In this document: one piece after another, positions 3,766 through 44,873 of the stretch
Position numbering within the stretch: the first letter of the stretch is position 1
How the letters are laid out: every line of letters begins with the position of its first letter
Assembly: GCA_964591515.1 (NCBI GenBank)
Contig: CAZQBW010000001.1
Coordinates: 36,316 to 100,315, forward strand
Direction of reading: 5' to 3'
DNA: 64,000 nucleotides
Source of the DNA: an uncultured Clostridia bacterium
GTDB lineage: Bacteria > Acidobacteriota > Blastocatellia > UBA7656 > JADIYM01
Notes under the pieces: model-generated
Databases searched by the model: none
Told to the model about the DNA's origin: nothing
What the model saw: the letters and a program-made list of their open reading frames with translations, nothing else
Made by a program: the position numbers and the translations under genes

Positions 3766-6675
3766 CTATGCGCCGTTCCAGTTCCCCCGCACTGGCAGGA
3801 CTCCCGACGTCGGTCCGTAAGAAAAGGCGTAATCCGCCGGGCCGTTGGTGTTGCCATTGCGAAGGAAGAACGTACCTGTAGACGGCACGTAGAGTCCGAC
3901 CGAATCGACCGCGTCGGCGTTCCAGTCACCGGCAATCGGAGTCCACGCCATCCCCCCGGGACCGAACGTGAACACGATGTCAGCAGGGCCCGGGGTCGCC
4001 GTGTTCCTGAGGAAGAAGGCTCCGCTCGACGCGATGTAGATTCCGATGGAGTCCTCTCCGTCGCCGTTCCAGTCGCCGGCCAGTGGCATGGCTCCTGCCG
4101 GTCCGAACGTGAAGACGAGGTCGGCGCCGCCCGGCAAATTGAGATTTCGTAGAAAGAACGTGCCGGTTGCCGGTGAGTAGATTCCTACCGTGTCGCGACC
4201 GTCGTTGTCCCAGTCGCCGACGATCGGCACGAATCCCGCGTTTCCGGGACCGAACGAGAAGACGATGTCGGCAGGGCCGGGTGTGGACGTGTTCCGCAGG
4301 AAGAACGTGCCGGTCGTCGGGGCGTAGAAGCCCGGCGTGTCGTAGCCGTCGCCATCCCAGTCGCCGGCGAGCGGAGTCCATCCCGAGCCACCCGGACCGT
4401 ATCCGAACACCAGGTCCGCACCGCCGCCACTGTGCGCATTGCGGAGGAAGAACGCCGAAGTCGATGGCGCATACACGCCGACCGTATCGCCGACGGTCCC
4501 TCCAGCCGAATTGTCGCGCCACCAGCGCACGAGATCGCGGAAGGCCTGCGGCGGGTTCGTCGGAGCGGGCTGCCCGAGCACCGTGTCGGTCGAGTTGATG
4601 CCGTGGCAGTTGGCACACGACCGGATCTCGCCCGAGGCGAAAGTCACCCAGTAGCGCTCGCGGATGACCGGTACGCCCGCCGGCGTCGTCAGCTGCCACG
4701 ACAGCGCCCGGCGGGCAGGCACGATCGCGGCCATGCTGCCGTCGAGGCCAAGCTGCGTGCTGCCGGGTGGAGCTCCGATCAGCGCCGGATTCCGGCCCTC
4801 ATGCATGACTTGCGCGATTGGTCTGCGGCCGCCTTCGTTGATGACCGTGTAACCGCGAACGAGGTCTCCCTGGTAGAACTGCGCATAGAGCATGTCCGTC
4901 AGCGTCGAGCCCGGAAGCGCAGTCTGGACACCTCCACCGGCGATCCGCAGATTGAATGGCTGCTGCCGGTCCGCGCGCCGTGTCACGTTTCGCGAAGTGA
5001 TGAGCGCGACGTTGTGAGACGTGAGCCAGGACTTCAGCCGGTCGACTCCGGGCTGTCCGCCGAGCTCGTCGAGGAGGATCTGGTTTTCGATGGACGGAAG
5101 GGGATTCTGGTGAGTTGACGGCCGCGTCCGCGAACGGACTTCAACCGGATCGAGCTCCCACAGCGGGCCACTGTAGTTGAGCTGCGAGTAGGAGTAGTTG
5201 TCCCAGTAACTGATCGTCTTCGAGATGGGTGTCGCGAGCAGCCGGGTTCCCGGCGTGAAGTAGGGAGATCCAGGCGTCAGCCTGACGAGATGAAAGTCGT
5301 AAATCGACGACAGCGGCGATCCGGTCTGGTTGTCGTCGTATGCGGCTGTCGTCCGGACAGCGATCAGGGTTCCATCCGACAACGGTGTCGGATTCCGGAA
5401 GTGTCCGGCGTAGTTCGGTGGCGGCGTCTGGCCGTCCGGAATCGGATTGGCGGTATTCGGATCCGTTATGTAGTCGAACTGCATGTTGTCGGGGTTGACC
5501 GACTCGCCACCCGAGATCGCGACGATCTGTCCCGCAGCGTGCGTGCCGAACTCAGGAGCGCGCGTCGCGTAGAACCTGCCCGGAACGAGCGGATCTTCCT
5601 TGTAGTGGAAGGTATTAGTCGCGGTGCGCCGGTTCTGCGGAGCAATGAATTCCGGAAGGTCGTCGTTCGAAGAGTCGAAATAGCTGAGCAGCTCGTGGCG
5701 CCCGACGTGGTTGAGCGTCTCGAGAGCAGTTCCGTCCTCGTTGACCTGCCACGGAAAGAACTGGTTGATCGTGTGTCCGTGGTTGTACTCCGAGGCGGGC
5801 ATGACGCGCAGCTCCGGGTAGATCTCTGCAGTGCTGCCGGTGTTGAGTGCAGAAGACTCAGACGCATAATTGAACGCGCCGTAGTCGTTCGTGCCCTCGT
5901 CGTTCTGCTGGTCGCGCTGCAGGTGATCCCATCGCGTGAAGATGACGCGACCGTCGCTTGCGATGATCGGCGTGAACGAGCCCGAGATGGAGTGATCGAG
6001 CAGCTTGAGGTCCGAGCCGTCCGGATTCATCGACCAGATGCCGGTGTTGGTCGGCTGCGATTCGTATTCGTCGAGTTGCGGATAGCTCGACCGCTTGCCG
6101 TTTCGCGGCCGATCGGATGTGAACAGGATCCGGTCGTCGGTCCCGTAGATCGGCGAGACATTGTTGTAGTTGTCGGGCTGGGCGATCTTGCGGAACTGGA
6201 CCGTCTGTCCCTGACCTATACCGGTCACTTCATAGATCTGCCAGTAGACGGGCGTCAGCACGTCCTTCGTAGTGCCGCCTATCACCATGGAGACCAGCGC
6301 CTTGGTGCCGTCCCAATGGATGGACGGCTCGCGCACCGCAATGTCCTGCAGGGGAGTCGTACCGAAACCGGCCTGCTGCGTCAGGTTTCGCAGCGTGCCA
6401 TCCATGTAGCGGATCCAGAGATCTCCGCCACGGGGCGTCGAACCGGTGTTGGCCTCGTGGTTGCCGAATGTGGCGTTCGTGCTCGTGAAGTCGGCGCCGA
6501 ATGGCGCCTGGGTGCAGAACATCACGGCCGGCGTCATCATCGTTTCGGCAGAGCTTCGTGCTGCCGGAAGTGCGACGACCGAAAGAGTCGCGAGCAATGC
6601 TGCAGAGACGAGCTTCGCGACAGAATTCAGGCGCGCTCGCCGGGGCGACGGGTGAAAGCGCATGGCGTGCTCCAT
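3766..6675 (-). CDS. Secreted multidomain protein: TolB/PD40-like beta-propeller N-terminal region, single CxxCH heme motif (CANCH), C-terminal array of about six 44-aa FG-GAP-like repeats
   Basis: N-terminal signal peptide (KLVSAALLATLSVVALPA). Repeats of type TGTFFLRN..PG.ADIVF.FGPG...P.GDWDGDG.DT.GIY. Motif SCANCHG. Confidence 0.75.
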   Translation of the reverse strand: MEHAMRFHPSPRRARLNSVAKLVSAALLATLSVVALPAARSSAETMMTPAVMFCTQAPFGADFTSTNATFGNHEANTGSTPRGGDLWIRYMDGTLRNLTQQAGFGTTPLQDIAVREPSIHWDGTKALVSMVIGGTTKDVLTPVYWQIYEVTGIGQGQTVQFRKIAQPDNYNNVSPIYGTDDRILFTSDRPRNGKRSSYPQLDEYESQPTNTGIWSMNPDGSDLKLLDHSISGSFTPIIASDGRVIFTRWDHLQRDQQNDEGTNDYGAFNYASESSALNTGSTAEIYPELRVMPASEYNHGHTINQFFPWQVNEDGTALETLNHVGRHELLSYFDSSNDDLPEFIAPQNRRTATNTFHYKEDPLVPGRFYATRAPEFGTHAAGQIVAISGGESVNPDNMQFDYITDPNTANPIPDGQTPPPNYAGHFRNPTPLSDGTLIAVRTTAAYDDNQTGSPLSSIYDFHLVRLTPGSPYFTPGTRLLATPISKTISYWDNYSYSQLNYSGPLWELDPVEVRSRTRPSTHQNPLPSIENQILLDELGGQPGVDRLKSWLTSHNVALITSRNVTRRADRQQPFNLRIAGGGVQTALPGSTLTDMLYAQFYQGDLVRGYTVINEGGRRPIAQVMHEGRNPALIGAPPGSTQLGLDGSMAAIVPARRALSWQLTTPAGVPVIRERYWVTFASGEIRSCANCHGINSTDTVLGQPAPTNPPQAFRDLVRWWRDNSAGGTVGDTVGVYAPSTSAFFLRNAHSGGGADLVFGYGPGGSGWTPLAGDWDGDGYDTPGFYAPTTGTFFLRNTSTPGPADIVFSFGPGNAGFVPIVGDWDNDGRDTVGIYSPATGTFFLRNLNLPGGADLVFTFGPAGAMPLAGDWNGDGEDSIGIYIASSGAFFLRNTATPGPADIVFTFGPGGMAWTPIAGDWNADAVDSVGLYVPSTGTFFLRNGNTNGPADYAFSYGPTSGVLPVRGNWNGA

Positions 6676-6797
6676 TCCGGGGGCGGACGGAAAGAAGTTG
6701 ATGTGGGTTCCGCGTTAGCGGGGGACCGAACTTCGCGATTGTCGGCCATGACCTACGGATCGTCAACACGGGGGGAGGGATTGAAGTTGGAGATGCC

Positions 6798-6900
6798 GGC
6801 GTTGCCGTACAGAGAACACAGAGGCACGGAGAGCACAGAGAAATCTGTTCATCAGGACTCTGTGTTCCCCGTGCCTCTGTGCTCTCTGTACGGCAACGCC
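6798..6900. repeat. CACAGAG-family palindromic intergenic element (about 103 bp, 32-bp arms with 31/32 complementarity)
   Basis: ggcgttgccgtacagagaacacagaggcacgg ... ccgtgcctctgtgctctctgtacggcaacgcc, read directly in sequence. Sits in a divergent promoter region. Confidence 0.6.
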
Positions 6901-6998
6901 TCCTCAGTCTCAGTCGGCGAGACACTCGACTTGAGGTTCCGGCGTCGCAACCATAGAATTGCCCCACCTCCCATTACTTCGAAGCCAGAGGGTTACCA

Positions 6999-9125
6999 AT
7001 GATCCGGATCCACCGTTCGTTGCCGTCCGCCGTCCTGCTGTGCCTCCTGCTCGCCAACGTCGTGTTCGGGTCTTCGGCGCTCGTTCGAAAGGACCAGCAG
7101 TCGGCCCCGGCGCTCGCCGTCGTCACGATCGACAAGATCGGGTACGAGCGTTGGTCCGCGTTGACGTCGAGCCCGGCTCTCGCGTGGTGGGTCGAGGTCG
7201 ACACGCACCTGCTTGTTGCAGGCGATCGGGCGGCGCTGTCAGCGCTTCTCGGCGGTCGCTTCGTTTTCCGATTCCTCGACGGCAGTCCGTCGACGGAGGG
7301 TCTCTACTTCACGAATCGATTCCCGGCGAACGAGATCGAGTCAGTTGGCGCGACCATCCTCGTCTCGGATGGCGGATCCAGCGTCATCCGGGCCACCCCT
7401 ACGCAAGTTGCCTCGCTCGAGGATCTCCACGCGGGCGACGACGAGGACGGCTGCCGCGGGCATGCGACGATCCGGCCATTCCAGCCGAACATGCAGCTCT
7501 CGCATCAGGCAGCCAACAGCAACGTTCCGACCTCGGCCCAGTTCAATGCGGCTATTCAGGGGCTCGTGGATCAGGTCAATGGATCGCGCTGGTTCGCTGA
7601 CGATCAGTCGCTCGCGACTTTCAACCGATGGACGCGTGGCGGGTCGATCATCAACGCACGGGAATGGCTCATCACGCAATTCCAGTCGATGCCTGGCCTG
7701 ACGGTCACGACGCAGTCGTTCACCGTACCGGCGAGCGGAGGAAATCCCGCCGTGACGGCCTACAACGTCATTGCGACGTTGCCCGGCACGACGCGCCCCA
7801 ACGACTGGTACATCGTCGGTGCGCACTATGACGCGATCTCCAACGACGATGGACACGCCACGGCAAGGGGAGCGGAAGACAACGGTTCGGGCTCTACCGG
7901 AGTTCTCGAGCTTGCCCGCATCTTCACCGCAAACCCTCCCGACGCCACGATGAAGTTCATCTGTTATGCGGGGGAGGAGCAGGGTCTGTACGGCTCGATC
8001 GCGCACGCCCAGTCGCTGGTGACATCGGGCGACAACGCGAAAGTCCGCGGGATGTTCAACCTCGACATGATCGGGTACACCGGCGACACGGACCTGGACT
8101 GCCGGCTTGAAACGCGGGCAATCGGACAGGGCCTGATGGATGCTTGCTCGGCCGCGGCGGCGCAGTACACGACGCTGCGAATCGTCACGTCTCTGAACCC
8201 ATGCTGTTCTGATCACCAGCCTTACCTGGACCGTTCGATGCCGGCAATTCTCGCCATCGAGAACGACTATGGAACGTATCCCGGCTATCACCAGTCTTCG
8301 GATCTATCGAACAACCTGACGATCGAAATGGCCGTGCAGATCCTCAAGATGTACGTGGCGACGATCGCGCAAATGGTCGGCACGAGTCCCGCCGGTCTCG
8401 GCCTCGAGACAGCAGGCGTCTATTCCCAATCAACGGGCACATTTTTCCTCAGGAACTCTAATTCGCCGGGCGGCGCCGACGCTGCCTTCCAGTTCGGTGC
8501 GGCTGCTGCTGGCTTCACGCCGCTGGCAGGCGACTGGAACGGTGATGGCGTCGACACGATTGGCCTCTACCGTGGAAACACGTCGACGTTCTTCCTTAGG
8601 AACTCGAACACGCCCGGAGCTGCCGACGTGGTTGTCTCGTTCGGCGCCGGTGGTGCCGGGTACCTGCCGCTCGTCGGCGACTGGGACGGCAACGGCACTG
8701 ACACCGTCGGGTTGTATCAGCCCTCAACCGGAGCGTTCTTCCTTCGCAACTCGAACACTCCGGGTGGCGCCGACGTCGTCTTCACATACGGACCCGCGAA
8801 CGCGACGCCGGTCGTCGGAGACTGGGACGGCAGCGGTACCACCACGATCGGGATCTTCATTGGTTCGACCTCGACCTGGTTCCTCCGCAACTCGAATACG
8901 CCGGGCGGTGCCGACATCGTGTTCGGGTACGGACCTGCCGGTTCTGGCTGGCTTCCGGTTGTCGGAGACTGGAACAACGACAACGCCCAGACTGTCGGAC
9001 TTTATGATCCGGTCGGTGGCAACTGGTTCCTCCGAGACTCGAACAGCGCGGGGCCAGGCACGAACGTCTTCGGATACGGTCCGACGGGCCTGATCCCGGT
9101 TCGCGGCGACTGGGACGGGCTGTAA
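6999..9125 (+). CDS. Secreted M28-family Zn aminopeptidase with C-terminal array of six 44-aa FG-GAP-like repeats
   Basis: Signal peptide. M28 motifs (HYDAISNDDGHATARGAEDNGSGSTGVLELARIF, CYAGEEQGLYGS, FNLDMIGY). C-terminal repeats FFLRNSNTPGGADVVF.YGP...GDWDGDG.DT.GLY, same type as in 3766..6675. Confidence 0.8.
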   Translation: MIRIHRSLPSAVLLCLLLANVVFGSSALVRKDQQSAPALAVVTIDKIGYERWSALTSSPALAWWVEVDTHLLVAGDRAALSALLGGRFVFRFLDGSPSTEGLYFTNRFPANEIESVGATILVSDGGSSVIRATPTQVASLEDLHAGDDEDGCRGHATIRPFQPNMQLSHQAANSNVPTSAQFNAAIQGLVDQVNGSRWFADDQSLATFNRWTRGGSIINAREWLITQFQSMPGLTVTTQSFTVPASGGNPAVTAYNVIATLPGTTRPNDWYIVGAHYDAISNDDGHATARGAEDNGSGSTGVLELARIFTANPPDATMKFICYAGEEQGLYGSIAHAQSLVTSGDNAKVRGMFNLDMIGYTGDTDLDCRLETRAIGQGLMDACSAAAAQYTTLRIVTSLNPCCSDHQPYLDRSMPAILAIENDYGTYPGYHQSSDLSNNLTIEMAVQILKMYVATIAQMVGTSPAGLGLETAGVYSQSTGTFFLRNSNSPGGADAAFQFGAAAAGFTPLAGDWNGDGVDTIGLYRGNTSTFFLRNSNTPGAADVVVSFGAGGAGYLPLVGDWDGNGTDTVGLYQPSTGAFFLRNSNTPGGADVVFTYGPANATPVVGDWDGSGTTTIGIFIGSTSTWFLRNSNTPGGADIVFGYGPAGSGWLPVVGDWNNDNAQTVGLYDPVGGNWFLRDSNSAGPGTNVFGYGPTGLIPVRGDWDGL

Positions 9126-9128
9126 TCC

Positions 9129-9998
9129 GTGAATCGGAGGGCGTTTGTAGCCGCGACAATAGCGGTGTCAGGCGCCCTCCTGCTTTCCGCTTGCACGAAC
9201 CCTGCTCCGACGTCTCCCGCGAGCCGCCACGAACTGACCGGACGTATCGTATCGATCGACGCGTCGTCCGGTCGTGTCACCGTCGCGCACAGGGCAATTC
9301 CGGGGTTCATGGATGCAATGACGATGGAGATGGCCGTCGAACCTCCGTCGTCGGTGGCGACGCTAATTCCCGGCGACAGGATTCGCGCGACTCTCGTCAT
9401 CGACGACGAAAAGACCTGGATCGAGAACGTCGAAAGGCTTGAAGGCGAGGCCGCCGGGTTCGACGTCGATGACGCCAGGGATCCCGATCTCGGCGCACCG
9501 GTCCCGCCATTCGAGCTCACTGATCAGAACGGTCAGCGATTCGGCTGGGAGCGGTTCCGAGGCCAGGCCGTGCTCGTGTCGTTCATCTACACTCGATGCC
9601 CGCTTCCGGATTACTGCGCCCGTATGACGGCGAACTTCGACGAGATCGCGCGCACGCTCGAATCCCGGCCGTCCGGTCGCCGGACCAGGTGGGCACTTCT
9701 GAGCATATCGATCGACCCGGATCACGACTCGCCGGCCGTGCTTCGGGACTACGCAGCGCTTCAGGCGCCGACCGCCGGCAACTTCGAGCGGTGGACCTTC
9801 GCGACTGGCTCTCCGGACGAGGTCAGAGCCGTTGCCCGGTTCTTCGGCCTGTCTTATGAAACCCAGTCCGGACAGATCGTCCACTCGCTGCGGACTGTTC
9901 TGGTCGGTCCTGACGGGCGGGTCGCGAAGCTCTTCCGCGGGAATACCTGGACGACCGACGAGGCAATCCGGGCTCTCGAGTCTGCTGACGCACGCTGA
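9129..9998 (+). CDS. SCO1/SenC-family lipoprotein (thioredoxin-like CxxxC copper chaperone) with N-terminal metal-binding-like extension
   Basis: Lipobox LLSAC. SCO1 motif FIYTRCPLPDYC with downstream His. Confidence 0.7.
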   Translation: MNRRAFVAATIAVSGALLLSACTNPAPTSPASRHELTGRIVSIDASSGRVTVAHRAIPGFMDAMTMEMAVEPPSSVATLIPGDRIRATLVIDDEKTWIENVERLEGEAAGFDVDDARDPDLGAPVPPFELTDQNGQRFGWERFRGQAVLVSFIYTRCPLPDYCARMTANFDEIARTLESRPSGRRTRWALLSISIDPDHDSPAVLRDYAALQAPTAGNFERWTFATGSPDEVRAVARFFGLSYETQSGQIVHSLRTVLVGPDGRVAKLFRGNTWTTDEAIRALESADAR

Positions 9999-10038
9999 CG
10001 ATCACACCTCGGTGATCGCCAGCGTTCATCCGTTGACG

Positions 10039-11577
10039 CTACCGCTGAAAGAGGAATTCCGGTGACGATGCTCCGTCCGGGTTGAGAACACGGACCGAGA
10101 CCGTCTCACCGGCGGGAATCGCCGTCGCCCAGGCGTTTTTCGACAGAGCCTTGTGGCGTGACTTCACCTTCGTATCGCGAACCAGCTCGCCGTTCACCAT
10201 GATCAGACTGCCGGCGCGGATGTCATCGCCTTCGACGATGAGCTTCGAGCCCTGGACTCGAATACCGGAAACGACCGGCGTCGAAGGTTCGCGGTGCTCG
10301 GCATCGATGGTCAGACCGAGGAAGCCGATGCACATCTCGTCCGTAGTCTTCTCGCCCCACGAGACGTCGACCGGCGGAATCGTCGGCTGATTGTGGTTCA
10401 GCTCAGAATTGTCGTACCGGGCCGTGAGCTCGACCCTCGTCGCACCTGGAATTGCCAGAGGCTGCCGGTATTTGTACGAGCCTTGCCAGTGGAAGTCCCA
10501 GTTGTCGATGAAGATGAGACACTGGCGCTCGCCCGTGACGAGGTTCTGGGCCGTCAGCTGCATCTCGCGTCCGAGCAGGTGCATATGCGGCGAGATGTAC
10601 TCAACCTTGACGTTCACCAAGGGCGGAAACGTGAACGACGCCGTAACCGGATAGTCACGCGCGTTGGCGGGAATCGTGAAGTTCTGATTGATAACCGGAA
10701 GGATGATCACGTCCTGGTATACCGGCGACCTCGCGAACTTGAGCGCGATCGACGTCGTGTCGACCTCATCCTGACCGTTCGGCTTGTAATGCACCTGAGC
10801 GACGATGCGAGCGCCCTTCGGCACGAGATAGCCAGTTCCATCACGGAGCACCTGTGGCGGAGCACCCGGTGCCCATCCGCCAAGCGTTCCTACAGTGGCG
10901 AAGCCCGGACCGCCGAAACTCGTGTAGCCGGGACCCGGATCCTGCTGATCGAGAGTAACGGAGATTCCGGTTGCGTCGATGTAGAGGATGACGTGGTGCA
11001 CGATCTTCCGATTGCTCGGGCTCACCTCGACGGCCGTGATGAATCGGTCCGCATCGAAGTTCGTCGGTATCGTGAAGCAGCGATAGATGTCGGCCGTAGC
11101 CGATGCCGGAACCCGGTAACCGCTCGGGACCGTCTGAAGTTCGATGTCAGGCACGCCGAGTTTCCACCCGTTGTCGAATACGAGCGACTCGGGCAGATCG
11201 ACTGGATTGCCCTCGGGAGCACCAGCATCCGCCCACTCCGCGAGCGTCGCGATTTCTTCATCCGTCAGGCCACGCTTGTTGGCGAAGTCGCCGCATCCGT
11301 CGACCGGCTTCCAGGGCGGCATCGCGCGAGATTGCGTCTCGGTCCGGATCGCTTCGGCCCACGGCGCGGCATCCTCGTACGTCATCAGACTGAAAGGAGC
11401 GATGTCACCCGGGTGGTGGCACGTCTGGCAGTTCTGCTGGAAGATCCGCACGACCTGATTCGAGAACGTTGCCGGCTCTGCAGGTGCTGCAGCCTGCGAA
11501 GTGGAGCGATCGGAAACGGCATACGCGCCCGCGGCGAGCGCCAACGCGAACGTGAGCAGACCGAGCGAACGTTTCAT
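10039..11577 (-). CDS. Secreted cytochrome c (PSCyt-like CQTCHH) fused to a copper type-II monooxygenase-like (PHM/DBH-like) domain
   Basis: Start placed at internal MKRSLGLLTFALALAAGAYA signal peptide. CxxCH plus MPPW motif. Motifs HHVILY and SPHMHLLGREM resemble Cu-monooxygenase His clusters. Confidence 0.6.
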   Translation of the reverse strand: MKRSLGLLTFALALAAGAYAVSDRSTSQAAAPAEPATFSNQVVRIFQQNCQTCHHPGDIAPFSLMTYEDAAPWAEAIRTETQSRAMPPWKPVDGCGDFANKRGLTDEEIATLAEWADAGAPEGNPVDLPESLVFDNGWKLGVPDIELQTVPSGYRVPASATADIYRCFTIPTNFDADRFITAVEVSPSNRKIVHHVILYIDATGISVTLDQQDPGPGYTSFGGPGFATVGTLGGWAPGAPPQVLRDGTGYLVPKGARIVAQVHYKPNGQDEVDTTSIALKFARSPVYQDVIILPVINQNFTIPANARDYPVTASFTFPPLVNVKVEYISPHMHLLGREMQLTAQNLVTGERQCLIFIDNWDFHWQGSYKYRQPLAIPGATRVELTARYDNSELNHNQPTIPPVDVSWGEKTTDEMCIGFLGLTIDAEHREPSTPVVSGIRVQGSKLIVEGDDIRAGSLIMVNGELVRDTKVKSRHKALSKNAWATAIPAGETVSVRVLNPDGASSPEFLFQR

Positions 11578-11817
11578 TACGAAAACCCTGTATCGGCGTG
11601 GGATGAGCGCGCGAACCGCGGCGCCCGAACTATACTCCGGACCCGACTCCTGGCTCAACGCCCGGGCCACCCCAATCCGATTTGTCTGGTGAATGCGTAG
11701 ACGGGTCGTTCAACCGACTGAGAACGACCCTGCAACTTCGGAATCTTCATGAGGAACTCCTGTCGCCGGTCGTGACTCAATCGCGTCCTCACCGCGAATG
11801 GAGGCGTCACGCAGGTC

Positions 11818-12015
11818 ATGAACGCGTTCTTCCGTGGGACGTCGCCCACCGTGTATGTCGACAATGCGACCGACAAGCGCTACTTCGAGACCCAGAACTA
11901 TTTCGAGTCCAGGCTCCGGCCGGGAGATCCGGTGAGCTCGCGCATCCACGGAACGCCGGGGTACCCGGTCACGATCACCGCCGGCTTGACGTTCCGGCTT
12001 TTCGCCAATAACTGA
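11818..12015 (+). pseudogene. Probable remnant of the C-terminus of a TonB-dependent outer-membrane receptor
   Basis: Translation VYVDNATDKRYFETQNYFESRLRPGDPVSSRIHGTPGYPVTITAGLTFRLF matches the TBDR C-terminal beta-barrel consensus. No upstream in-frame body. Confidence 0.4.
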
Positions 12016-12156
12016 CGAAGGCTATACTTCGGCCGCCCCAACGCTCTCGATCCAGACATTCAATTCACGCACTGCGAACGCGGCTCGGTGTCTCGCGACC
12101 CGACGCCGCGGTTTGCACGTTGAGGTTGGTCCATTGGGAATCCGCCGAGGTCGTTA

Positions 12157-13290
12157 ATGCAGCCAGAGCAGCCGTCGAGTCCGTCCGGCAAGGTGCCCGC
12201 GACGCTCCAGAAGGAGGTCCGTGCAAAACTAGCATCGCTCAACATCAAGCTCACGCTTGCGGCAGAGGAGCTCAAGAAGGAGACGAATCCGGACCGCATC
12301 CGGGAGTTACGAGACCTCTTGTACGAGCTGAAGGCCGAAGCGCAGACGGCAGTCGAAAAGTACCGATGGGCGCAGAAGCTCTATGCGGAGGACTCAGGCG
12401 GAGCGGGGTCTGCAACTGAAGCCGACAACTCCGTCGACGCCGCTTTCGATGGAGTCCTGGTTTTCGGCGATCTCGACCTGTTGTCGCCTCCGCCCCAGGA
12501 TCTCATCAGCGCTGCAGCCGGAAAGTCGACTGACCCGTTGAAACGGCGTGAGACTGACATCGACGACGACGTGGCTGTTGTCTTCGACATCGAGGCAGTA
12601 CAGGACCAGCCGGGTGCGGCCGCCAGGGCATTCGACGACCTCGACGCCTCGGCAGACGTGTTCGATTCGCTGACCTATTCAATCGAGCTCGACGCACCGG
12701 TCGAGGAGGCCGGTGGCGCTCGATCCTCCGTGGCGGGTCGCGGCGGTCGCATCGGCCAGGCTCTTGCGTATGCCGTGTCCGCGTCCCAGGCAGCGGGTGT
12801 TGCGCTGGCAGCGCCGTTGGCGGCAGCATCGCTTGCGATCGAGGGCGGTGCGGACGAGAACGCGACAATCGCGGCGGCGCTCCACGACGTCTGCGAAGGA
12901 CCGGGTGGCGGAGAGCGGCAGCAGGAAGTCATTGACGAGTTCGGGCCTGCCGTTGGCGGCCTGCTCGAGTGGTGCGGGTGGATGAAGTCGATCGATCCGT
13001 GGGAACAGCGCGACCGCGCCTGGTTCACACACTTGCAAACCGCGCCTCCCGATGCGTTCCTCGTCTCGATCTGTTACCGGATCGCAACGTTGTCGGCGAT
13101 CGAGCGTGCGCGTCGCGCGCTCGGCGTCGAGGCGCTTGGCGAATCGGACAAACACCGCGAGCGGTTCTTCTGGAGCCAGCGCGCAATGCTCAAGGCCTAC
13201 AAGTCGAAGGCTCGTGGTCCGCTCGTCGACGAATGGCAGCGTCTCGTCGACGAGCTCGAGACCGGATCTGCCGGGAAGCCCGCCGTTTAA
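12157..13290 (+). CDS. Hypothetical protein: coiled-coil N-terminus plus C-terminal HD-like phosphohydrolase domain
   Basis: ALHDVCEG (HD-like) and surrounding helical region. Weak. Confidence 0.45.
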   Translation: MQPEQPSSPSGKVPATLQKEVRAKLASLNIKLTLAAEELKKETNPDRIRELRDLLYELKAEAQTAVEKYRWAQKLYAEDSGGAGSATEADNSVDAAFDGVLVFGDLDLLSPPPQDLISAAAGKSTDPLKRRETDIDDDVAVVFDIEAVQDQPGAAARAFDDLDASADVFDSLTYSIELDAPVEEAGGARSSVAGRGGRIGQALAYAVSASQAAGVALAAPLAAASLAIEGGADENATIAAALHDVCEGPGGGERQQEVIDEFGPAVGGLLEWCGWMKSIDPWEQRDRAWFTHLQTAPPDAFLVSICYRIATLSAIERARRALGVEALGESDKHRERFFWSQRAMLKAYKSKARGPLVDEWQRLVDELETGSAGKPAV

Positions 13291-13351
13291 TGGTCAGAAC
13301 ATGGGTCAGGTCCTGATCGGAACCGCGAGCGACCGGGTGGATGGGGCAGAA

Positions 13352-13514
13352 GGCGTTGCCGTACAGTGTTCACAGAGGCACAGAGCACGCAGCGAGACAA
13401 TCATCAGAACTCAGAGTTCTCGGTGACTCCGTGCTCTCCGGACGGCGACGCCTTCTGCAGAGGTGTGCTGAAACGCCAGAGAGCACAGAGCCTATGACGA
13501 CTCTGTGCTCTCTG
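13352..13514. repeat. CACAGAG-family palindromic element (degenerate about 100-bp copy plus a perfect 14-bp-stem hairpin cagagagcacagag/ctctgtgctctctg)
   Basis: Read in sequence. Lies between convergent genes, so may act as a bidirectional terminator. Confidence 0.55.
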
Positions 13515-13554
13515 TGAGCGGAGCGTGCCGCTGTCTGAAGCGCCTTGCCTCGAC

Positions 13555-14361
13555 CTACTTGAAGCCAAGCTTCGTTCGCAGCTTGTCCTTGACGATGACA
13601 CCCTTGGCGAATGCCGCGTCAGCAGTCTCACGCACTCCCACGAGAGTGAACGTATGCCACTTCGCCTTCGCGTCGGCGAGCATCGCCTTGACGGCGGCGA
13701 GCTCTGCTTCTTCCGCAGCCACATTCACCTTTCTTTCCTTCGCGGCGTCCATCAATCCGGTTGCCCAGACAACGATTCCGTTGGCGCGATCGATCGCTTC
13801 CATGGCCGTCAGCGCGGAGGCCTCGATGTCCTTGCGATTCGGCAGGAGGTTCCGTTCGATGCCGTGGCACTGGGCGCACAGATTCGCTGCTTCAGGCGGG
13901 AACGAGGCGACGGTTGACGCCATGTGCTGATGGCACGTCGCGCACGTCGGTCCGAGGCCGGCGGCCTTCAACTTCTGGTAATGCGTGCTGCCGGTGAATG
14001 CCGTCGTAATCGGCTCGTGGCAGGCGCCGCAGGTCTGCGGGAGGTTGAGGGAATTGGTCTTGCTCTGCGCTTCTACTGACTTGAGTACGCCGACGTGGGA
14101 CTTTTCCTTGCGGTCCGTGGTCGGGTCCCCGCCGTGGCATTTGTCGCAACTCACGGCCGTCTGCATGTGCCGCGAGAGGTGCCACTCGAGATAGTGGTTG
14201 GTCATTCCCTCGAACTTGAGGTCTCTGGAATGACACGAAACGCACGAGTTGCCCTTGAAAGCCGCGAGTTCGTCCTGAGGCGAGTCGGTGACAGGTCTCG
14301 CGAACGCGATGACTCCGAGGAACAATGCGGCGAAGGCGACGACGACAAAGGTCTTGAACAT
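13555..14361 (-). CDS. Pentaheme c-type cytochrome (secreted or membrane-anchored)
   Basis: Five CxxCH motifs (CVSCH, CDKCH, CGACH, CATCH, CAQCH). Start placed at MFKTFVVVAFAALFLGVIAFA. Confidence 0.8.
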   Translation of the reverse strand: MFKTFVVVAFAALFLGVIAFARPVTDSPQDELAAFKGNSCVSCHSRDLKFEGMTNHYLEWHLSRHMQTAVSCDKCHGGDPTTDRKEKSHVGVLKSVEAQSKTNSLNLPQTCGACHEPITTAFTGSTHYQKLKAAGLGPTCATCHQHMASTVASFPPEAANLCAQCHGIERNLLPNRKDIEASALTAMEAIDRANGIVVWATGLMDAAKERKVNVAAEEAELAAVKAMLADAKAKWHTFTLVGVRETADAAFAKGVIVKDKLRTKLGFK

Positions 14362-14793
14362 GGCGCTTCTCCCATCGAGCGGCTCGACGCCTGCGCCGTG
14401 GCTACTCAGATGTGGCGCCGATTCCTGCCGAGCCTGCGCGATGGAAGGTGCAACCTGCGTGCCAAGTTGACGATTTGAACGCCCCAGACTGGGGCAGCCC
14501 GAAATCGCCGCGTTCCCCCGCATCCCGCCGTCCTTCAGGTATTTCGCTCTGATCGAATCTGCGCCATATGACGAGCCCACGTGCGGAAATGCACCCGGCT
14601 CGACGCTTCATTTCTGAAGGCGTCCGGTGCCTGGCATCCGGCCACCGCGGGCGGACGGCGCCGGCGACCCGACTTCCACCATCTTGAAAGGATCTCAGTG
14701 GAGAATGCGAACGATCCGCTAGTCCATGGCGCAGAGATCCCCCGGGCCGTCAGAGTTTCCGCGATGTCGATCGTTAGTTCCCTCTGACTGAGA

Positions 14794-17064
14794 TCACGGA
14801 ATCGTCGCCACGACGGCTGCCGAGTATGCGGGACCGGGATTGGCGATCCGCACTTCCACTTGTGTTCCTGCCGGCACTGCCGCCCGTTCGATTCGTACGC
14901 GGAAGCTCTTCTTGCTCGTCCGCTCAACCGACATCAATGGAACGGCAGTGCCCGAGCCGTCCGCGAGCCTCACATCGACCGTCGCGTCGTCGAGTACGTA
15001 CTTTCCGCGCACTGTCAGCGTGATGTTCGATCCGTCAGCCACGGTTACTTTCTTGACGAGCGGTCCGATCAGCAGCAGCGGAACGACCGCAACGGATGGA
15101 TCCGTCCCCGGATTCCGGACCTGTACAACCACGCTGCCAGGCGTGTTGCGAACCTCCGGAATGTCATCGAGCGCAACTCTCAGCGTCCGCATGTCGACGA
15201 ACTCAGTCGGCGCGTCGATCCCGTTCAGGACCGCTACTGACCCCGCGACGAACAGCCGCGATGCGTCCGTCGATGCGTTGTTCAGAGTCAGGACGATACC
15301 GGGCTCGCCAGCGTAGATCTTCTTCCTGTCGGGAGCGACAGTCACCGACGTAAGGAGCGGTGAGCTCTGAGCTCCGCGACCGGCGCGCTGGCTGAACCAC
15401 TTTCCAGAGATGATGTACGACTCGCCAGCCGCGTCCAGTCTGTTCCCGGCGCCATCGCCGCCCATTGCATTCGGAACCAGGTCGATGAATCCGTCTCCGT
15501 CGACGTCACCGGTCGCGAGTGAGTACGTGAACATGTCGCCCGCATCAGGCGCCACGATCTGGAAGATCGGCACCGACGGCGGATTGTTCGCCGTGTCGAC
15601 GATCGCCGGAAATGGCTGCTCCGAGCCGAAGATGACTTTCAGGTCGCCGGCGGATTCGCGTCCTGCGCCAGCGTTGATCGGACTTCCGAAGAGAATGTCG
15701 TCGAGACCGTCGTCGTCGATGTCGGCGATACGTAGCGAATCCGCGCCAATGTCGCCGGCGTTCTCACCGTAAATTGTCAGCGCCTTCGCGTTTGCCGCGT
15801 TCCTGAGATCGATCCGGTCTCCGCGTCCGAAACGGCTCCCCCAGACGATGTAGCCGATACCCGCTGCATTCCTGCCCGGCGCATCCGCAACGAGGGCGCC
15901 GATCGCCAGTTCATCGCGCCCGTCGCCGTCGATGTCGCCGGCATCGACGTCTTCCCCAAAGTACCCGTTCGCCTGATCGCCATACACGATGGTGGTGTCG
16001 TTCGGCGGATTCGAAAGCTGAATGGCGGATGGCCACGCCGCGCGACCGTAGAGCACAGTCACCTCGCCAGCGTTCTGCCGGTCGTTGTTCGGGCCGTCGC
16101 CGCCGCCCTGGCCGATGCCGTTGTTCACCTGGCCGTAGCCGGTATACGCAGCCCCCGCGCGCGAGACTCCGGCCGAGCAGGCGATGTCTCCGAAACCGTC
16201 GCCATCGAAATCGCCGGTGGAGATGCACGAGCCGAAGTGATCCTGGTCATCGAGTCCATAGACTGCGGTCACGTCGAGACTGCTCAGATCGGAACCTCGG
16301 GAAAGGTCTATCCGGGCCGGAAAATCCTGACCGCCTGGAATCATGTAAAGGATGCCCCGGGCGGCGCCGGCCCCGCTGCTGCTCTTCGCAAGGTCCGCCG
16401 AGACGAGAATATCGGCGATATCGTCACCGGTGACGTCGCCGGCGTGAACCCAGAATCCCAGCCGGTCGCCCGGGTTCGCTCCGAGAATCTGAATGACGGA
16501 GGGTCCCGGATTGACGAGGTCGATCGTTGGAGGAAACTCGGGCCGGCCGATCACGACATATGCCACGCCTGCCTGCGACCGATTCGAGTCGTTGTCGAAT
16601 CCGTCTCCGTTCTGCGCACCAGTCAGGATATCGGCGATCCCGTCACCGGTGACGTCGCCGAGCGAGATCTCGGTTCCGAGAAAGTCGTCCGGGCGAGCGC
16701 CGAAGATCGAGCACGTGCCCGCAGGAGCCTGGGCCATGTCCACAACCGACCCGGTCAGCGCATCCGCGGATCCGAAGGCCACGTTGATCTGACCGGCAGC
16801 ACGGCGCCCGCCGGACGGTCCCGACGGTCCGTAGAACGCGGCAAGCGCAACGTCATCGAAACCGTCGCCGTTGACATCGCCAGAGCCGACCGGCATTCCG
16901 AGGAGCGATCCTTCGGAGTAGCCGTTGTAGACCGTCATCTGTCCCATCTGGCTGGTGTCACGAGTGTCCCAGATCCGAGTGTAGATGGCGGATGCCGGAA
17001 TTGCCGGAATGGACCAGAGAACGATGGCGGGCAGGACGAGGCTTGCAATGTAGCGTCGGTTCAC
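14794..17064 (-). CDS. Secreted FG-GAP (integrin-alpha-like) beta-propeller protein with C-terminal Ig-like (IPT/TIG-like) domains
   Basis: Signal peptide. Repeated GDVNGDGFDDV, GDVTGDGIADIL, GDFDGDGFGDI, GDIDGDGRDEL, GDVDGDGFIDLV motifs. Confidence 0.8.
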   Translation of the reverse strand: MNRRYIASLVLPAIVLWSIPAIPASAIYTRIWDTRDTSQMGQMTVYNGYSEGSLLGMPVGSGDVNGDGFDDVALAAFYGPSGPSGGRRAAGQINVAFGSADALTGSVVDMAQAPAGTCSIFGARPDDFLGTEISLGDVTGDGIADILTGAQNGDGFDNDSNRSQAGVAYVVIGRPEFPPTIDLVNPGPSVIQILGANPGDRLGFWVHAGDVTGDDIADILVSADLAKSSSGAGAARGILYMIPGGQDFPARIDLSRGSDLSSLDVTAVYGLDDQDHFGSCISTGDFDGDGFGDIACSAGVSRAGAAYTGYGQVNNGIGQGGGDGPNNDRQNAGEVTVLYGRAAWPSAIQLSNPPNDTTIVYGDQANGYFGEDVDAGDIDGDGRDELAIGALVADAPGRNAAGIGYIVWGSRFGRGDRIDLRNAANAKALTIYGENAGDIGADSLRIADIDDDGLDDILFGSPINAGAGRESAGDLKVIFGSEQPFPAIVDTANNPPSVPIFQIVAPDAGDMFTYSLATGDVDGDGFIDLVPNAMGGDGAGNRLDAAGESYIISGKWFSQRAGRGAQSSPLLTSVTVAPDRKKIYAGEPGIVLTLNNASTDASRLFVAGSVAVLNGIDAPTEFVDMRTLRVALDDIPEVRNTPGSVVVQVRNPGTDPSVAVVPLLLIGPLVKKVTVADGSNITLTVRGKYVLDDATVDVRLADGSGTAVPLMSVERTSKKSFRVRIERAAVPAGTQVEVRIANPGPAYSAAVVATIP

Positions 17065-17170
17065 GAGGTGCGAGTCTCCTTACAAGGTGTATCCGGGATG
17101 ATAGCAGCTTGCCGAAGGACGGCTTCACGACCGTATCCGCAGGAGACAAAAGGGCCTTCGGCCGGCTTGG

Positions 17171-17198
17171 TTGACAAAGTCCAGAATGACCGTATACT
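17171..17198 (+). promoter_or_regulatory. Near-consensus sigma70 promoter TTGACA-N16-TATACT upstream of yceD-rpmF-plsX-fabD-acpP-fabF
   Basis: ttgacaaagtccagaatgaccgtatact, read directly. Confidence 0.45.
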
Positions 17199-17218
17199 TC
17201 TCGCTTTTTGGCAGGCAG

Positions 17219-17746
17219 ATGGAAATCGATCTTATTCACCTTGAACCGGATGGTCAGCATCTTCGAATTGCGTTCGGGGCCCTCGAGTTCGGCGCGCAAC
17301 GGAAGAGGGAGCTGCTTCGTCCGCTTCGGGCCGAGATTACGGCGTGGGTGAGGCCTGAGGGTGGAGTTGTTCGGGTGACGGGTGAGATCGAAGCCACGGC
17401 CAGTGCCGAATGCGATCGTTGTTTGAAACCGCTTGAACTTGCCCTGGTCGGAACCTTCGACCAGCGCTACGTCCACGAAGCCGCCCCGAGTGGCGTCGAC
17501 GTCGACGAGACCGAGCTCGACCCGACCGAGCTCGACATCGAAGAGCTGCCTTCGGGTGTGCTCGACGTCCGCGAGGTGGCCCGGGAGCAGGTCGCACTCC
17601 TCGCCCCGATGCACGTGCTCTGTTCCGAGTCTTGTGCGGGACTTTGTCCGACGTGCGGTGGGGACCTGAACGTGACGACCTGCGGATGTGAATCCGAGCA
17701 GATCGATCCGCGCTGGGAAGCGCTAAAGCGGTTGCAGAATTCCTGA
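17219..17746 (+). CDS. yceD: YceD/DUF177-family protein (23S rRNA accumulation protein)
   Basis: C-terminal Cys cluster CSESCAGLCPTCG...CGC. Position immediately upstream of rpmF. Start moved to internal ATG to clear the promoter. Confidence 0.7.
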   Translation: MEIDLIHLEPDGQHLRIAFGALEFGAQRKRELLRPLRAEITAWVRPEGGVVRVTGEIEATASAECDRCLKPLELALVGTFDQRYVHEAAPSGVDVDETELDPTELDIEELPSGVLDVREVAREQVALLAPMHVLCSESCAGLCPTCGGDLNVTTCGCESEQIDPRWEALKRLQNS

Positions 17747-17778
17747 AATCAGAGATTTCGACGAGAAGGTGACTCACA

Positions 17779-17964
17779 ATGCCGAATCCGAAACGACGCC
17801 ATTCCAAGTCGCGACGCAACATGCGCCGCGCCCATGATGCCATCGACGCGCCGCAGACTGTCGCGTGCAAGACCTGCGGTCAGCCGTCGATGCCGCACCG
17901 CATGTGCCCGAGCTGCGGGCACTACGACGGAAAACTGATCAAGAAGATCGAAGACGAGGCATAG
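17779..17964 (+). CDS. rpmF: 50S ribosomal protein L32
   Basis: MPNPKRRHSKSRRNMRRAHDA plus zinc-ribbon cysteines. Confidence 0.9.
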   Translation: MPNPKRRHSKSRRNMRRAHDAIDAPQTVACKTCGQPSMPHRMCPSCGHYDGKLIKKIEDEA

Positions 17965-17992
17965 CCTCCGTTTCCGCCTGCGCCCGCGCCTG

Positions 17993-19009: not shown

Positions 19010-19028
19010 CCGGGTGCGGACCACATTC

Positions 19029-19985
19029 ATGACAACGGCATACATATTTCCCGGACAAGGATCGCAGGCCGTCGGCATGGGGCGGGCGCTCTACGACTCC
19101 AGTCCTGCTGCGCGTGACGTTTTCGCCGTGGCAGATGAGGCTCTCGGCCTTTCGATATCGAGCCTCTGTTTCGACGGTCCCGAAGACGACCTGAAGCTGA
19201 CGGCGAACACCCAGCCGGCAATCCTCACCGTCTCCGTTGCCGTTTACCGGGCAGCAATCGAGGCCGGAGCGCCGGAGCCGCAGTACGCGGCCGGGCACTC
19301 TCTGGGCGAGTATTCGGCGCTCGTGGCCGCAGGGGTTCTCGAATTGTCGGACGCAGTACGGCTCGTACGCGCTCGCGGAACGTTCATGCAGGAAGCCGTA
19401 CCTGTCGGCGTCGGCGCGATGGAAGTCGTGCTGGGCCTCGAGGACGAGAAGGTCGAGGAAGCGTGCCGCGAGGCCGCCCAGGGAGACGTCTGCGCGCCGG
19501 CCAACTACAACGGTGCCGGCCAGGTGGTCATCGCGGGAACTGCGGCCGCGGTTGCGCGGGCTGGCGAGATCGCCAAACGGCTCGGTGCAAAGCGCGTCAT
19601 AGCCATTCCGGTAAGCGCGCCGTTTCATACGGCGCTGATGCAACCAGCAGCTGAGCGAATGGTCGAGTTGCTCGAGGCAACATCGTTTCGCGACCCCAAG
19701 TTTCCGGTCGTGGCCAACTCGACGGCCGAGCTCGATTACACCGGGGAAAAGGCGCGGGAACTGCTCGAGAAGCAGATTGCGTCGCCCGTGCTCTGGGAGC
19801 AGTCGGTCATCAAGCTCGATGCCCTTGGCGTAAAGAATTGGGTTGAGATGGGACCCGGCCGTGTACTGGCCGGACTCGTTCGGAAGACGGTAAAGGGGGC
19901 GACGTGCCATTCGGTCGAGCGCCCGGACGACATCGTGGCTCTGTTTTCGGCCCCGGCGGCGGGCGCCGAGCCCGCTTCCGTGTAA
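19029..19985 (+). CDS. fabD: Malonyl-CoA:ACP transacylase
   Basis: [16 protein letters not shown]. Alternative GTG start at 19014. Confidence 0.9.
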
Positions 19986-22453: not shown

Positions 22454-22492
22454 CGGCGTCGATCGCGCGTCGCGCGATCCGCGGGAGGCATT

Positions 22493-42395: not shown

Positions 42396-44873
42396 CTACT
42401 GCAATACGACCGGTGCGGTGAAGATGCCAGAGATGAAGACTCGAACAGCAACCGGCTTTGCTTGAAGGAGTTGCGGTAGTCGCGAGTCTTTGCCGACCAG
42501 TCGGCTGCTCGTTCCGTCCGTCCCGACAAAACGCGGCGGAGCTTTCACTGATCCGAGGGCAGTCTCGCCAACGAAGATCTCCCCACCCGTAGCCGGCAAG
42601 CGCAGTCCGTCGACCGTCAGCTTCTTGCCGCTCGTGGCGAACCTGGCGGATCCAAGAACTGGAGCAAACGGATCCAGCGCGTCCACGGCGGCTGACGATG
42701 CTGTCGCCATCGATTCGATTCCCTCTCCATCAACGAAATCGACCCGCACAGTAGCCGATGCGAGCATCAGGCCATTCACGATTGCTGGCGCGGCCGACTG
42801 ACCGAGCACGAAAGCTGACTTGGATCCCGTGGCCCAGTCGCCGTCCCCGTCAAGATCCACTCGGAGCACGGCGCCGATCGCATCGCGATCCGGCTGAGCA
42901 TCTGCCGCGTGTGCGTCTGCGTCGGAATCCGTTCGAGCTCGCAGACGAAGCGTCCCCGTTCCGGAGCGCGGATTCTGCATGATTCCGATCTCGCCAGACG
43001 ACGTCACGCCAAGATCAACGGTGCCGGAACCATCCCGATCCACCCATACCGCCGACGTCAGGTCCGCAGGCAGAGAGAAGCGCGCCGTCGCGTCGTCGAA
43101 TCCGTTCGCACCGCGATTGCGAAGCACGTGGATGCCGTCCTGCCCACCCTCGACGAGCAGGTCCGTATCGCCGTCGGCATCGTAATCCGCCGGCAATACT
43201 CGAGTTCCCCCCGCAAGCCCCCCGATCGCAAGCTCCGACGTAACGTCGAGAAAACGAAGTTCGCCTCCAACACCGGCGAGCACCAGATTCCCTGCCAGAC
43301 GCGTCGCAACGACGTCGAGCCATCCGTCTCCGGTCACGTCCGCCCACGCAACGGCCGACGCGGGAAAGCTCACGGCAGATCCGAACGCCGTCGACTCGTC
43401 AACCATTCTTCCTTCGGTGTAGCTATAGACTCGAAGTCCGGCTCCGGTCGCGACCAGCAGCCGCGGTCCCCCGGCAAGCCCCGTTACCGGCCCCGTTGGC
43501 GCGCTCCACGTCGACGAAGCATCGACGAAGCCGTCCGCCGTGTTCTTCAGTGCGAGCAGTCCCGTCGACCCGCCAGCCACGACATCGAGACGACCGTCCC
43601 GGTCGACGTCCATCCAGACGACCGCGCGCGGGTCCGCGAATCGGGGAAGAGATGTCGGCGCGCCGACACTGGTGAACGAACCGAGCCCATCGTTACGCCA
43701 GATGCTCGTCGCATTGACAGCGAGCACCGCGAGATCCGGAGTCCCGTCGCCATCGGCGTCGCCCCAGGCGAGCGCGCGAACATCGCCGGGAAGCGTCAAT
43801 CCAGAGGCCTCGGTCGATTCGGTGAACGTCCCGTCGGCCTCCTGCAGGTAGAGGAGGACGCCTCCTGCGCTGCGGCCAACCACGACGTCCTGACGGCCGT
43901 CGCCGTCGACATCGGCCCAGGCCTGTCGCTGAAAGTCGCCGCCGAGAGGCGCCTCCGCGATTGGCACCGCCGTGGACAGCCCAAGCGGCGCGATCGTGAG
44001 GTTAGACCGCGACTGATCGGTTCGCTCGGTACCACCAGTGTCCACTACAACGACCCGGATCCGGGCATCGGTCGTGGCGAGGGCCTCGGGAATGGTCCAC
44101 ACGAATGACCGTGCGGTCGCCGGCAGATTGTCTGCCAGGACGGACGGGTAATTCTCGCCGCCGTCCGTCGAGAGCAGAACACGGAAATAGGATGGCGTGG
44201 CAGAGTCGCCATCGGTTGCGCTCCAGCGAATGACTACGCGCTCACCCGATCCGAGCGGACTGCCAGTCGTCGGCGATTCGAGTCGGACGCGAACAAAGCG
44301 TGTTAATCCATCGATAGTTACGCTCGTTGTGTAAATGTAATCGTAGAAGTCCGTGTGGTCACCGTTGGCCGCATTTCCAGCTGCGTAGAACGTCACGGGT
44401 CCGAGGTCGGTCGATGGCGCTTTCCAGACCATTGACCAGGATACTTCTCCGCGTGATCCGTCATAGGTCCCAGTCAAGGTGTGCTGTGCGTAATACCGGC
44501 CAAGACGCTGCGAAGGCCCGAGTGCCGAGACCGAGAGCGTGCTCGACTGGAAGAAGCCCGCGGCGTGACCGAGTTCGTCGATGGCCGTGATCTGGAATCC
44601 CCACTTCTTGGCCAGCGGATCCGAGACCCTAACGGTCACTGGGTACGTCTGGCCGGGTGTGTACTGTGTCGGAAGTCCCTCGATCGCCACACGGCCGGGG
44701 CCGGAATCGAGTGGATAGGTCCGGTGGCACGTATTGCACGCCACCTCGCTGGGCGCACCGGTCCGCTCGAGAAAGGGTCCGGTCGACAGCGCTTCCACCG
44801 ACTCGGACGACGACATCAGTACGACCGCGGCTACCGCAAAGACGAGAAGGGCGAGTGACTTCAGTAGTTTCAT
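42396..44873 (-). CDS. Secreted FG-GAP/VCBS-repeat protein with N-terminal CxxCH motif (CNTCH)
   Basis: Signal peptide MKLLKSLALLVFAVAAVVL. Repeated D.DGDG..D motifs (DVDGDGRQDVVVG, GDADGDGTPDL, DVDRDGRLDVV, DVTGDGWLDVV, DYDADGDTDLL). Confidence 0.75.
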   Translation of the reverse strand: MKLLKSLALLVFAVAAVVLMSSSESVEALSTGPFLERTGAPSEVACNTCHRTYPLDSGPGRVAIEGLPTQYTPGQTYPVTVRVSDPLAKKWGFQITAIDELGHAAGFFQSSTLSVSALGPSQRLGRYYAQHTLTGTYDGSRGEVSWSMVWKAPSTDLGPVTFYAAGNAANGDHTDFYDYIYTTSVTIDGLTRFVRVRLESPTTGSPLGSGERVVIRWSATDGDSATPSYFRVLLSTDGGENYPSVLADNLPATARSFVWTIPEALATTDARIRVVVVDTGGTERTDQSRSNLTIAPLGLSTAVPIAEAPLGGDFQRQAWADVDGDGRQDVVVGRSAGGVLLYLQEADGTFTESTEASGLTLPGDVRALAWGDADGDGTPDLAVLAVNATSIWRNDGLGSFTSVGAPTSLPRFADPRAVVWMDVDRDGRLDVVAGGSTGLLALKNTADGFVDASSTWSAPTGPVTGLAGGPRLLVATGAGLRVYSYTEGRMVDESTAFGSAVSFPASAVAWADVTGDGWLDVVATRLAGNLVLAGVGGELRFLDVTSELAIGGLAGGTRVLPADYDADGDTDLLVEGGQDGIHVLRNRGANGFDDATARFSLPADLTSAVWVDRDGSGTVDLGVTSSGEIGIMQNPRSGTGTLRLRARTDSDADAHAADAQPDRDAIGAVLRVDLDGDGDWATGSKSAFVLGQSAAPAIVNGLMLASATVRVDFVDGEGIESMATASSAAVDALDPFAPVLGSARFATSGKKLTVDGLRLPATGGEIFVGETALGSVKAPPRFVGTDGTSSRLVGKDSRLPQLLQAKPVAVRVFISGIFTAPVVLQ

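Follow-up and report, generated by a model that had tools for sequence, protein, structure and literature searches.

The window (the whole stretch of DNA analyzed here, 64,000 nucleotides long, with a G+C content of ~62% and its nearest relatives among Blastocatellia genomes of the Acidobacteriota) encodes three secreted proteins, p1 (3766..6675), p2 (10039..11577) and p3 (42396..44873), all on the minus strand, each of which contains exactly one CxxCH motif by direct count in the translations. Considered overall, these motifs are genuine and very probably serve as attachment sites for haem c, judging from sequence and structural models. The best explanation of the findings as a whole, which we advance with considerable confidence, would be haem c sites in three unrelated, independently encoded, Sec-exported modular proteins. 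Real as the finding is, it is largely ordinary, because each motif lies in a haem domain of its own that belongs to a large, catalogued and uncharacterised family. An earlier note on this DNA had the number and positions of the motifs right; its description of the carriers as non-cytochrome proteins does not stand, since each motif falls within a recognisable domain, namely the hydrazine synthase alpha (HZS-alpha) middle domain in p1, a class-I cytochrome c domain in p2, and the choice-of-anchor V domain in p3.

Among open reading frames (ORFs) of at least 150 aa in the window, a six-frame census found CxxCH only in p1, p2, p3 and two pentahaem cytochromes. The number of motifs expected by chance, computed analytically from the Cys and His content of each protein, is 1.8e-4 for p1, 1.5e-3 for p2, and 3.5e-5 for p3. 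Three Cys are present in p1 (two of them in the motif), six in p2, and two in p3, both in the motif. The motifs are invariant across phyla, though overall identity is only 22-50%. The earlier note had allowed that they might be chance occurrences lacking conservation in orthologs; conservation is what we observe. One CxxCH occurs in 118 of 120 p1 homologues, the two exceptions being of fragment length (624 and 649 aa), and the motif is retained in 119 of 120 homologues of p2. For choice-of-anchor V, in which the motif takes the form C-x(n)-CH, it is present in all loci of species-level genomes (80/80, with n=2 or 4) and in all further cluster representatives (143/143, with n=2, 3 or 4). Attachment of haem c needs an exported protein with a signal peptide, and a signal-peptide-like N-terminus is found in p1, p2 and p3 alike. 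The same genome encodes further c-type cytochromes, the two pentahaem proteins.

The first protein, p1 (969 aa), delimited from its ORF, translation and homologues, combines an HZS-alpha-like core with a C-terminal repeat module. The core (~aa 44-727; 4495..6546, minus strand), defined by the AlphaFold2 model, Foldseek and Pfam, consists of a beta-propeller and a haem-binding middle domain. PF18582, the hydrazine synthase alpha subunit middle domain, matches aa 638-691 (E 8.3e-5), and the match ends at H691, the last residue of the predicted haem c site CANCH (residues 687-691; 4603..4617, minus strand). Alignments of 20 and of 64 sequences (50-75% identity) show no variation at C687, C690 or H691; the third Cys of the protein, C54, is not conserved in the family. 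A search with the N-terminal 684 residues returned more than 4,149 homologues; the best 120 are all at least 50% identical, nearly all of them have a precomputed PF18582 match, and their hosts are Acidobacteriota, Planctomycetota, Deltaproteobacteria, Sumerlaeota and Hydrogenedentes.

The earlier note had also proposed examining the local fold around the motifs in predicted structures, which gave a clear likeness for p1. The AlphaFold2 model (pLDDT 92.4) has as its best Foldseek match, spanning the entire model, 5c2v_A, the alpha subunit of hydrazine synthase (E 3.2e-18, 751 columns, TM 0.53/0.48), and the next matches (1e-8), ten orders weaker, are propellers only. Because searches of PDB sequences with the single sequence, a full-length profile and a middle-domain profile returned no hydrazine synthase match, the link between p1 and this enzyme is drawn from Pfam and Foldseek only. 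The earlier note had called mono-haem tagging of beta-propellers unusual; the arrangement in p1 is that of the solved hydrazine synthase alpha subunit, and it recurs in more than 4,000 homologues.

The C-terminal module of p1 (3772..4488, minus strand) is made up of five FG-GAP-like repeats of ~48 aa that the Pfam scan did not detect. It was recognised by its similarity to the C-terminus of a divergent M28 peptidase encoded next to p1 (6999..9125, plus strand), to which it is 59% identical over 239 aa (E 1e-85). Since these repeats are common to p1 and the neighbouring peptidase, they constitute an accessory module rather than the haem-bearing part, and p1 is not the haem-tagged FG-GAP protein it had been taken for. 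The module probably functions in anchoring or binding. The other neighbour of p1 is an aminotransferase gene. Export of p1 by the Tat pathway, which would argue against haem c maturation, was considered from its start, SPRRARL, and ruled out, as the family consensus does not retain the RR. We envisage a core in which the face of the propeller would meet the middle domain, with the latter carrying one His-ligated haem c; p1 would thus probably be a periplasmic or extracellular haem enzyme.

The second protein, p2, has 512 aa from the Met at 11577, from which its residues are numbered here (the mechanical ORF extends to 11670), and joins a cytochrome c domain, a two-copper monooxygenase and a C-terminal beta-sandwich. 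The class-I cytochrome c domain (approximate limits 11221..11475, minus strand), assigned from Pfam and conservation, contains the predicted haem c site CQTCH (11416..11430, minus strand), within the sequence CQTCHH. PF00034 scores 18 against a cut-off of 21.3 (E 7.5e-3), just under it, and several p2 homologues have precomputed PF13442 matches. Homologues number more than 4,592, and some already bear the name 'ascorbate-dependent monooxygenase' or 'mono/diheme cytochrome c family protein' in their sources. In an alignment of 21 family sequences (46-74% identity), C50, C53, H54 and M86 (in MPPWK) are invariant, M86 being the putative axial haem ligand. Also invariant in this alignment are the copper ligands H194, H195, H263, H331, H333 and M415. 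They belong to a PHM/DBH-like catalytic core (approximate limits 10303..11151, minus strand) assigned from the family profile, which matches PHM structures at 5.5e-11 and DBH at 3.7e-5 and aligns the HH, H and HxH motifs of p2 with the copper ligands of PHM. The single sequence of p2 scores 19.3 with the copper monooxygenase Pfam model, against a cut-off of 30.

p2 would be a self-sufficient copper monooxygenase. Single electrons for CuH most likely come from the His/Met cytochrome c domain in place of ascorbate, after which the CuM site would hydroxylate the substrate; ascorbate itself is an unlikely donor. We found no paper on a bacterial cytochrome-c-fused PHM. A likely copper chaperone, a CusF-SCO1/SenC fusion (PF11604 at 1.2e-13; PF02630 at 3.1e-22), is encoded convergently with p2 (9129..9998, plus strand) and probably loads its copper. 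In a syntenic contig both SCO1 and p2 are missing, which suggests that the pair travels together. The CusF-SCO1 gene starts four bases past the stop of the M28 peptidase gene.

The third protein, p3 (825 aa from the Met at 44873, with the mechanical ORF extending to 44924), is composed of a choice-of-anchor V domain (44319..44810), an Ig-like domain, an FG-GAP propeller and a C-terminal beta-sandwich. The choice-of-anchor V model NF041895 matches aa 39-202 of the ORF with 98.4 bits against a cut-off of 42, and the FG-GAP region (approximate limits 43005..43937, minus strand) matches PF13517 in five stretches at 9.1e-34. The predicted haem c site, CNTCH (44724..44738, minus strand), holds the sole two Cys of the protein and falls within the choice-of-anchor V domain. 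Haem domain and propeller are therefore separate modules, and most members of the family do not have a propeller, so p3 is not a haem-tagged propeller as had been supposed.

Choice-of-anchor V is a widespread family. Its profile matches 3,588 clusters (50% identity) at E <= 1e-30 and 28,467 at E <= 1e-3, the latter figure being inflated because the profile includes C-terminal tail domains. Members occur in Acidobacteriota, Poribacteria, Bacteroidota, Ignavibacteriae, Gemmatimonadota and Planctomycetota, and most are 200-300 aa in length with a sorting tail for type IX secretion, PEP-CTERM or dockerin. The fold is a reeler-type beta-sandwich: the profile matches the F-spondin reeler domain at 5e-5, the best Foldseek match is a reeler domain (2e-7), and Pfam Reeler is matched in 41 of 100 members. 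The motif is carried on an N-terminal extension with the consensus [FY]SSGPPxxRTGAPGExTC-x(2-4)-CH, which starts at the predicted signal-peptidase site (A/V at -3 in 73%, A/G/S/T at -1 in 95%, F/Y at +1 in 63%), and the distance from +1 to the first Cys is 17 residues in 66 of 96 sequences. Across 100 sequences the Cys of the motif are 99% and the His 100% conserved. The spacing n in 120 homologues is 2 in 84, 3 in 2, 4 in 19, 5 in 5, and 6 in 2, the other 8 being mostly N-terminally truncated fragments; in full-length proteins it is nearly always 2, 3 or 4. Known haem c sites include CX2-4CH.

We consider it likely that choice-of-anchor V binds haem, which p3 would bear on the conserved N-terminal extension. 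As this domain is fused in p3 to an Ig-like domain and an integrin-like FG-GAP propeller, the protein is probably a surface-exposed module for electron transfer or ligand sensing. The alternative that survives best applies to this domain: the Cys pair could staple a loop by a disulphide, with the invariant His, perhaps together with the free N-terminus, binding a metal such as copper or helping to form a binding site. Choice-of-anchor V would then be a reeler-type adhesion or metal-binding module rather than a cytochrome. The minority of homologues with a Cys spacing of 5-7, unusual for haem c, would also be compatible with a loop closed by a disulphide and, after it, a His that binds metal; the predominance of spacings of 2 to 4 is that of haem c sites, and we regard the disulphide reading as possible, if on balance improbable. 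A search of the literature found nothing relevant on choice-of-anchor domains or on a reeler domain with haem.

Two observations concern the neighbours of choice-of-anchor V genes. A BNR/Ycf48-like protein was considered as a partner, as one homologue has such a neighbour and the window contains a BNR-like gene (50340..51557); this link was rejected because the two proteins share only BNR repeats. In a locus of the Acidobacteriota genome CP065000.1, a 280-aa choice-of-anchor V protein (6001..6843 of that locus) is encoded directly after a 1,323-aa protein with FG-GAP repeats and an M36 peptidase domain (1952..5923 of the same locus), a pair that echoes the association of FG-GAP, peptidase and haem protein in the window.

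Besides the unusual spacings in choice-of-anchor V, several points weigh against the assignment of the three motifs to haem c and against the roles proposed for their carriers. The case for haem is built wholly on sequence and predicted structure, from which we infer haem occupancy, axial ligands, the direction of electron flow and substrates. The PF18582 match of p1 scores 23.5 bits, just under the gathering threshold of 26.6, as does the PF13442 match of p2 (24.8 against 27; E 2.7e-5). The earlier note had also suggested looking for a conserved distal axial ligand, a search that succeeded in part: M86 of p2 is invariant in the 21 sequences, and no conserved distal ligand was identified in the family alignments of p1 and of choice-of-anchor V. 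In two other genomes the p2 homologues do not have SCO1 as a neighbour, and homologues of p1, p2 and choice-of-anchor V have no conserved neighbourhood that hints at a substrate. We nevertheless favor genuine haem c sites for all three motifs, given their conservation, their domain assignments and the fold matches.

The relation of the three genes to each other was approached through their surroundings. The backbone of the window is that of an ordinary chromosome, with plsX, fabD, fabF, ETF, ETF-QO, LpxD and a tyrosine recombinase (xerC-like), as well as a sigma-54 two-component pair, ParAB, a radical-SAM methylthiotransferase and RecN, and the secreted redox genes are dispersed between these housekeeping genes. 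The three genes are not an operon. A second alternative would nonetheless see a redox island here, encoding a single system for extracellular electron transfer made up of p1-p3, both pentahaem cytochromes, the FG-GAP proteins and SCO1. Five CxxCH-bearing proteins do fall inside 44 kb, a pair of FG-GAP protein and pentahaem cytochrome is present twice, with one copy directly upstream of p3, and HzsA homologues elsewhere have been described beside FG-GAP (CRTAC1-like) genes and multihaem beta-gamma homologues (PMC12758564, 2025); however, the genes in question are interspersed with plsX, fabD, fabF, ETF, lpxD, the xerC-like gene and parAB.

The syntenic contig (L094), in which the p1 orthologue is 75% identical, was compared with window positions 2345..19985, and the outcome likewise speaks against a redox island. 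The contig keeps the backbone aminotransferase-p1-M28-HD-YceD-L32-plsX-fabD, interrupted only by a protein kinase gene that sits between M28 and p1, but it does not have SCO1 and p2 or the first pair of pentahaem cytochrome and FG-GAP protein, which are insertions specific to the window. In other genomes, the genes homologous to p1, p2 and choice-of-anchor V stand alone and in unrelated surroundings; p1, p2 and p3 therefore represent three separate cases, not one system, and a redox island is quite unlikely. The enrichment for redox components that the earlier note had pointed out is thus partly borne out: two multihaem cytochromes, CusF-SCO1, ETF-beta and ETF-QO are all present, but the secreted ones came as independent insertions into a housekeeping backbone and do not make up one system. 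It is extremely improbable that the CxxCH motifs arose by chance or survive as relics and bind no cofactor; this is contradicted by their conservation across phyla and by an expectation of 4e-5 to 1.5e-3 motifs per protein.

The remaining redox genes of the window can be described briefly. ETF-beta (21671..22453), a likely ETF-alpha (22493..23467, plus strand) and ETF-QO (24389..26113) are cytoplasmic or inner-membrane components encoded beside plsX, fabD and fabF and have no relation to the secreted haem proteins. A 610-aa ORF (22430..24262, minus strand) runs antisense to the likely ETF-alpha gene, has no Pfam match and is probably a spurious ORF of the high-G+C type. A small ORF (26082..26630, plus strand) that shares ~30 bases with the end of the ETF-QO gene matches eCIS_core (PF13699, E 1.2e-6).

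The two pentahaem cytochromes (13555..14580 and 45743..47716, both on the minus strand) each follow an FG-GAP repeat protein encoded on the same strand (14794..17064 and 47726..50221, respectively), the second of these pairs being the one next to p3. The paired FG-GAP proteins are 51% identical to each other over 743 aa, while their two cytochromes are barely alike. A weak mutual similarity (pairwise E 1e-3 to 2e-4) links the C-termini of several secreted proteins in the window, each a beta-sandwich of ~70 aa: p2 (10048..10248), both FG-GAP proteins (with ends at 14794 and 47726), and the pentahaem cytochrome that ends at 45743. The tail of p3 has no significant match to this sandwich, and the C-terminus of p2 has a weak match to a choice-of-anchor Z repeat. 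This terminal domain may serve sorting or anchoring in a lineage-specific manner.

All three families have thousands of members that are catalogued yet uncharacterised, and three secreted proteins now called 'hypothetical' deserve annotation as haem proteins. The notion of haem grafted onto propellers is corrected as well. Cytochrome-c-fused monooxygenases of the PHM/DBH type would offer a possible ascorbate-independent route to copper-dependent hydroxylation in bacteria. The part most worth experiment is choice-of-anchor V, a domain of ~150 residues that may represent a new class of beta-sandwich cytochrome.

Among known systems, p1 is best compared with the alpha subunit of Kuenenia stuttgartiensis hydrazine synthase (PDB 5C2V chain A). 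Both have an N-terminal beta-propeller followed by a middle domain ending in CxxCH, which in the hydrazine synthase carries haem alpha-I, at a sequence identity of only ~13%. The differences are considerable. Hydrazine synthase alpha has a second, bis-His haem (alpha-II) in its C-terminal domain, which p1, with its single CxxCH, does not, and p1 has the extra C-terminal FG-GAP-like module that the alpha subunit does not. In the anammox enzyme, a Tyr four residues past the motif His is a haem ligand and an extra Cys serves a zinc site or a third thioether; in p1 the motif His is followed by GINSTDTVLGQPAPT, with no Tyr within 15 residues and no conserved third Cys. Neither a gene for the beta-gamma partner of hydrazine synthase nor any dihaem ORF is found in the window. 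Accordingly, p1 is not a hydrazine synthase and, as it does not have the features specific to that enzyme, is probably a haem enzyme of another kind. HzsA homologues outside anammox bacteria keep the canonical haem alpha-I pocket, do not have the anammox Tyr and Cys peculiarities, often lack haem alpha-II, and are of unknown function (PMC12758564); with its canonical CxxCH and no Tyr after it, p1 fits these non-anammox HZS_alpha proteins.

The counterpart of p2 is found in the copper type II ascorbate-dependent monooxygenases PHM and DBH (PF01082/PF03712), with which it has the two-domain core in common. The CuH ligands (HH...H) and CuM ligands (HxH...M) are likewise common to p2 and these enzymes and are invariant in the p2 family. 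p2 differs in being bacterial and secreted and in having an N-terminal class-I cytochrome c domain, which the solved animal PHM and DBH structures do not show.

For choice-of-anchor V, the Reeler domain (PF02014; F-spondin, PDB 2ZOT/2ZOU/3COO) accounts for the fold, and its match begins after the extension that bears the motif. p3 further differs from most members of its own family in the fusion to Ig, FG-GAP propeller and C-terminal sandwich. The extension invites comparison with cytochrome f, in which the sixth ligand to the haem comes from residue 1, through its alpha-amino group. The family might be a large, unrecognised one of surface mono-haem c cytochromes with a reeler fold and a cytochrome-f-like design, a proposal that we make tentatively and regard as rather unlikely. 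In such a design, which is as doubtful as the proposal itself, the haem would sit on the extension, ~17 residues from the mature N-terminus, and the free amino group might be the sixth ligand.

Sequence homology to cytochrome f (PetA) was tried and rejected. The hhalign score is 25.5, against 21.8 +/- 1.7 (maximum 28.1) for shuffled cytochrome f with the motif kept, a difference of no more than ~2 SD, and unrelated CxxCH proteins give similar scores of 19-25; the local alignment is in register at the CxxCH and the first strand, and sequence comparison lends no support apart from the motif. Neither the 25 Pfam families that choice-of-anchor V members match most frequently nor the Foldseek top 50 include cytochrome f, the 184-residue domain has no counterpart of the small-domain insertion of cytochrome f, and a search of the literature found nothing relevant on cytochrome-f-like proteins of this kind. 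True homology is thus very unlikely, and the likeness is one of design, a lead rather than membership. To our knowledge the origin of cytochrome f is unexplained; if common descent were nonetheless true, choice-of-anchor V would provide the first candidate relatives of cytochrome f.

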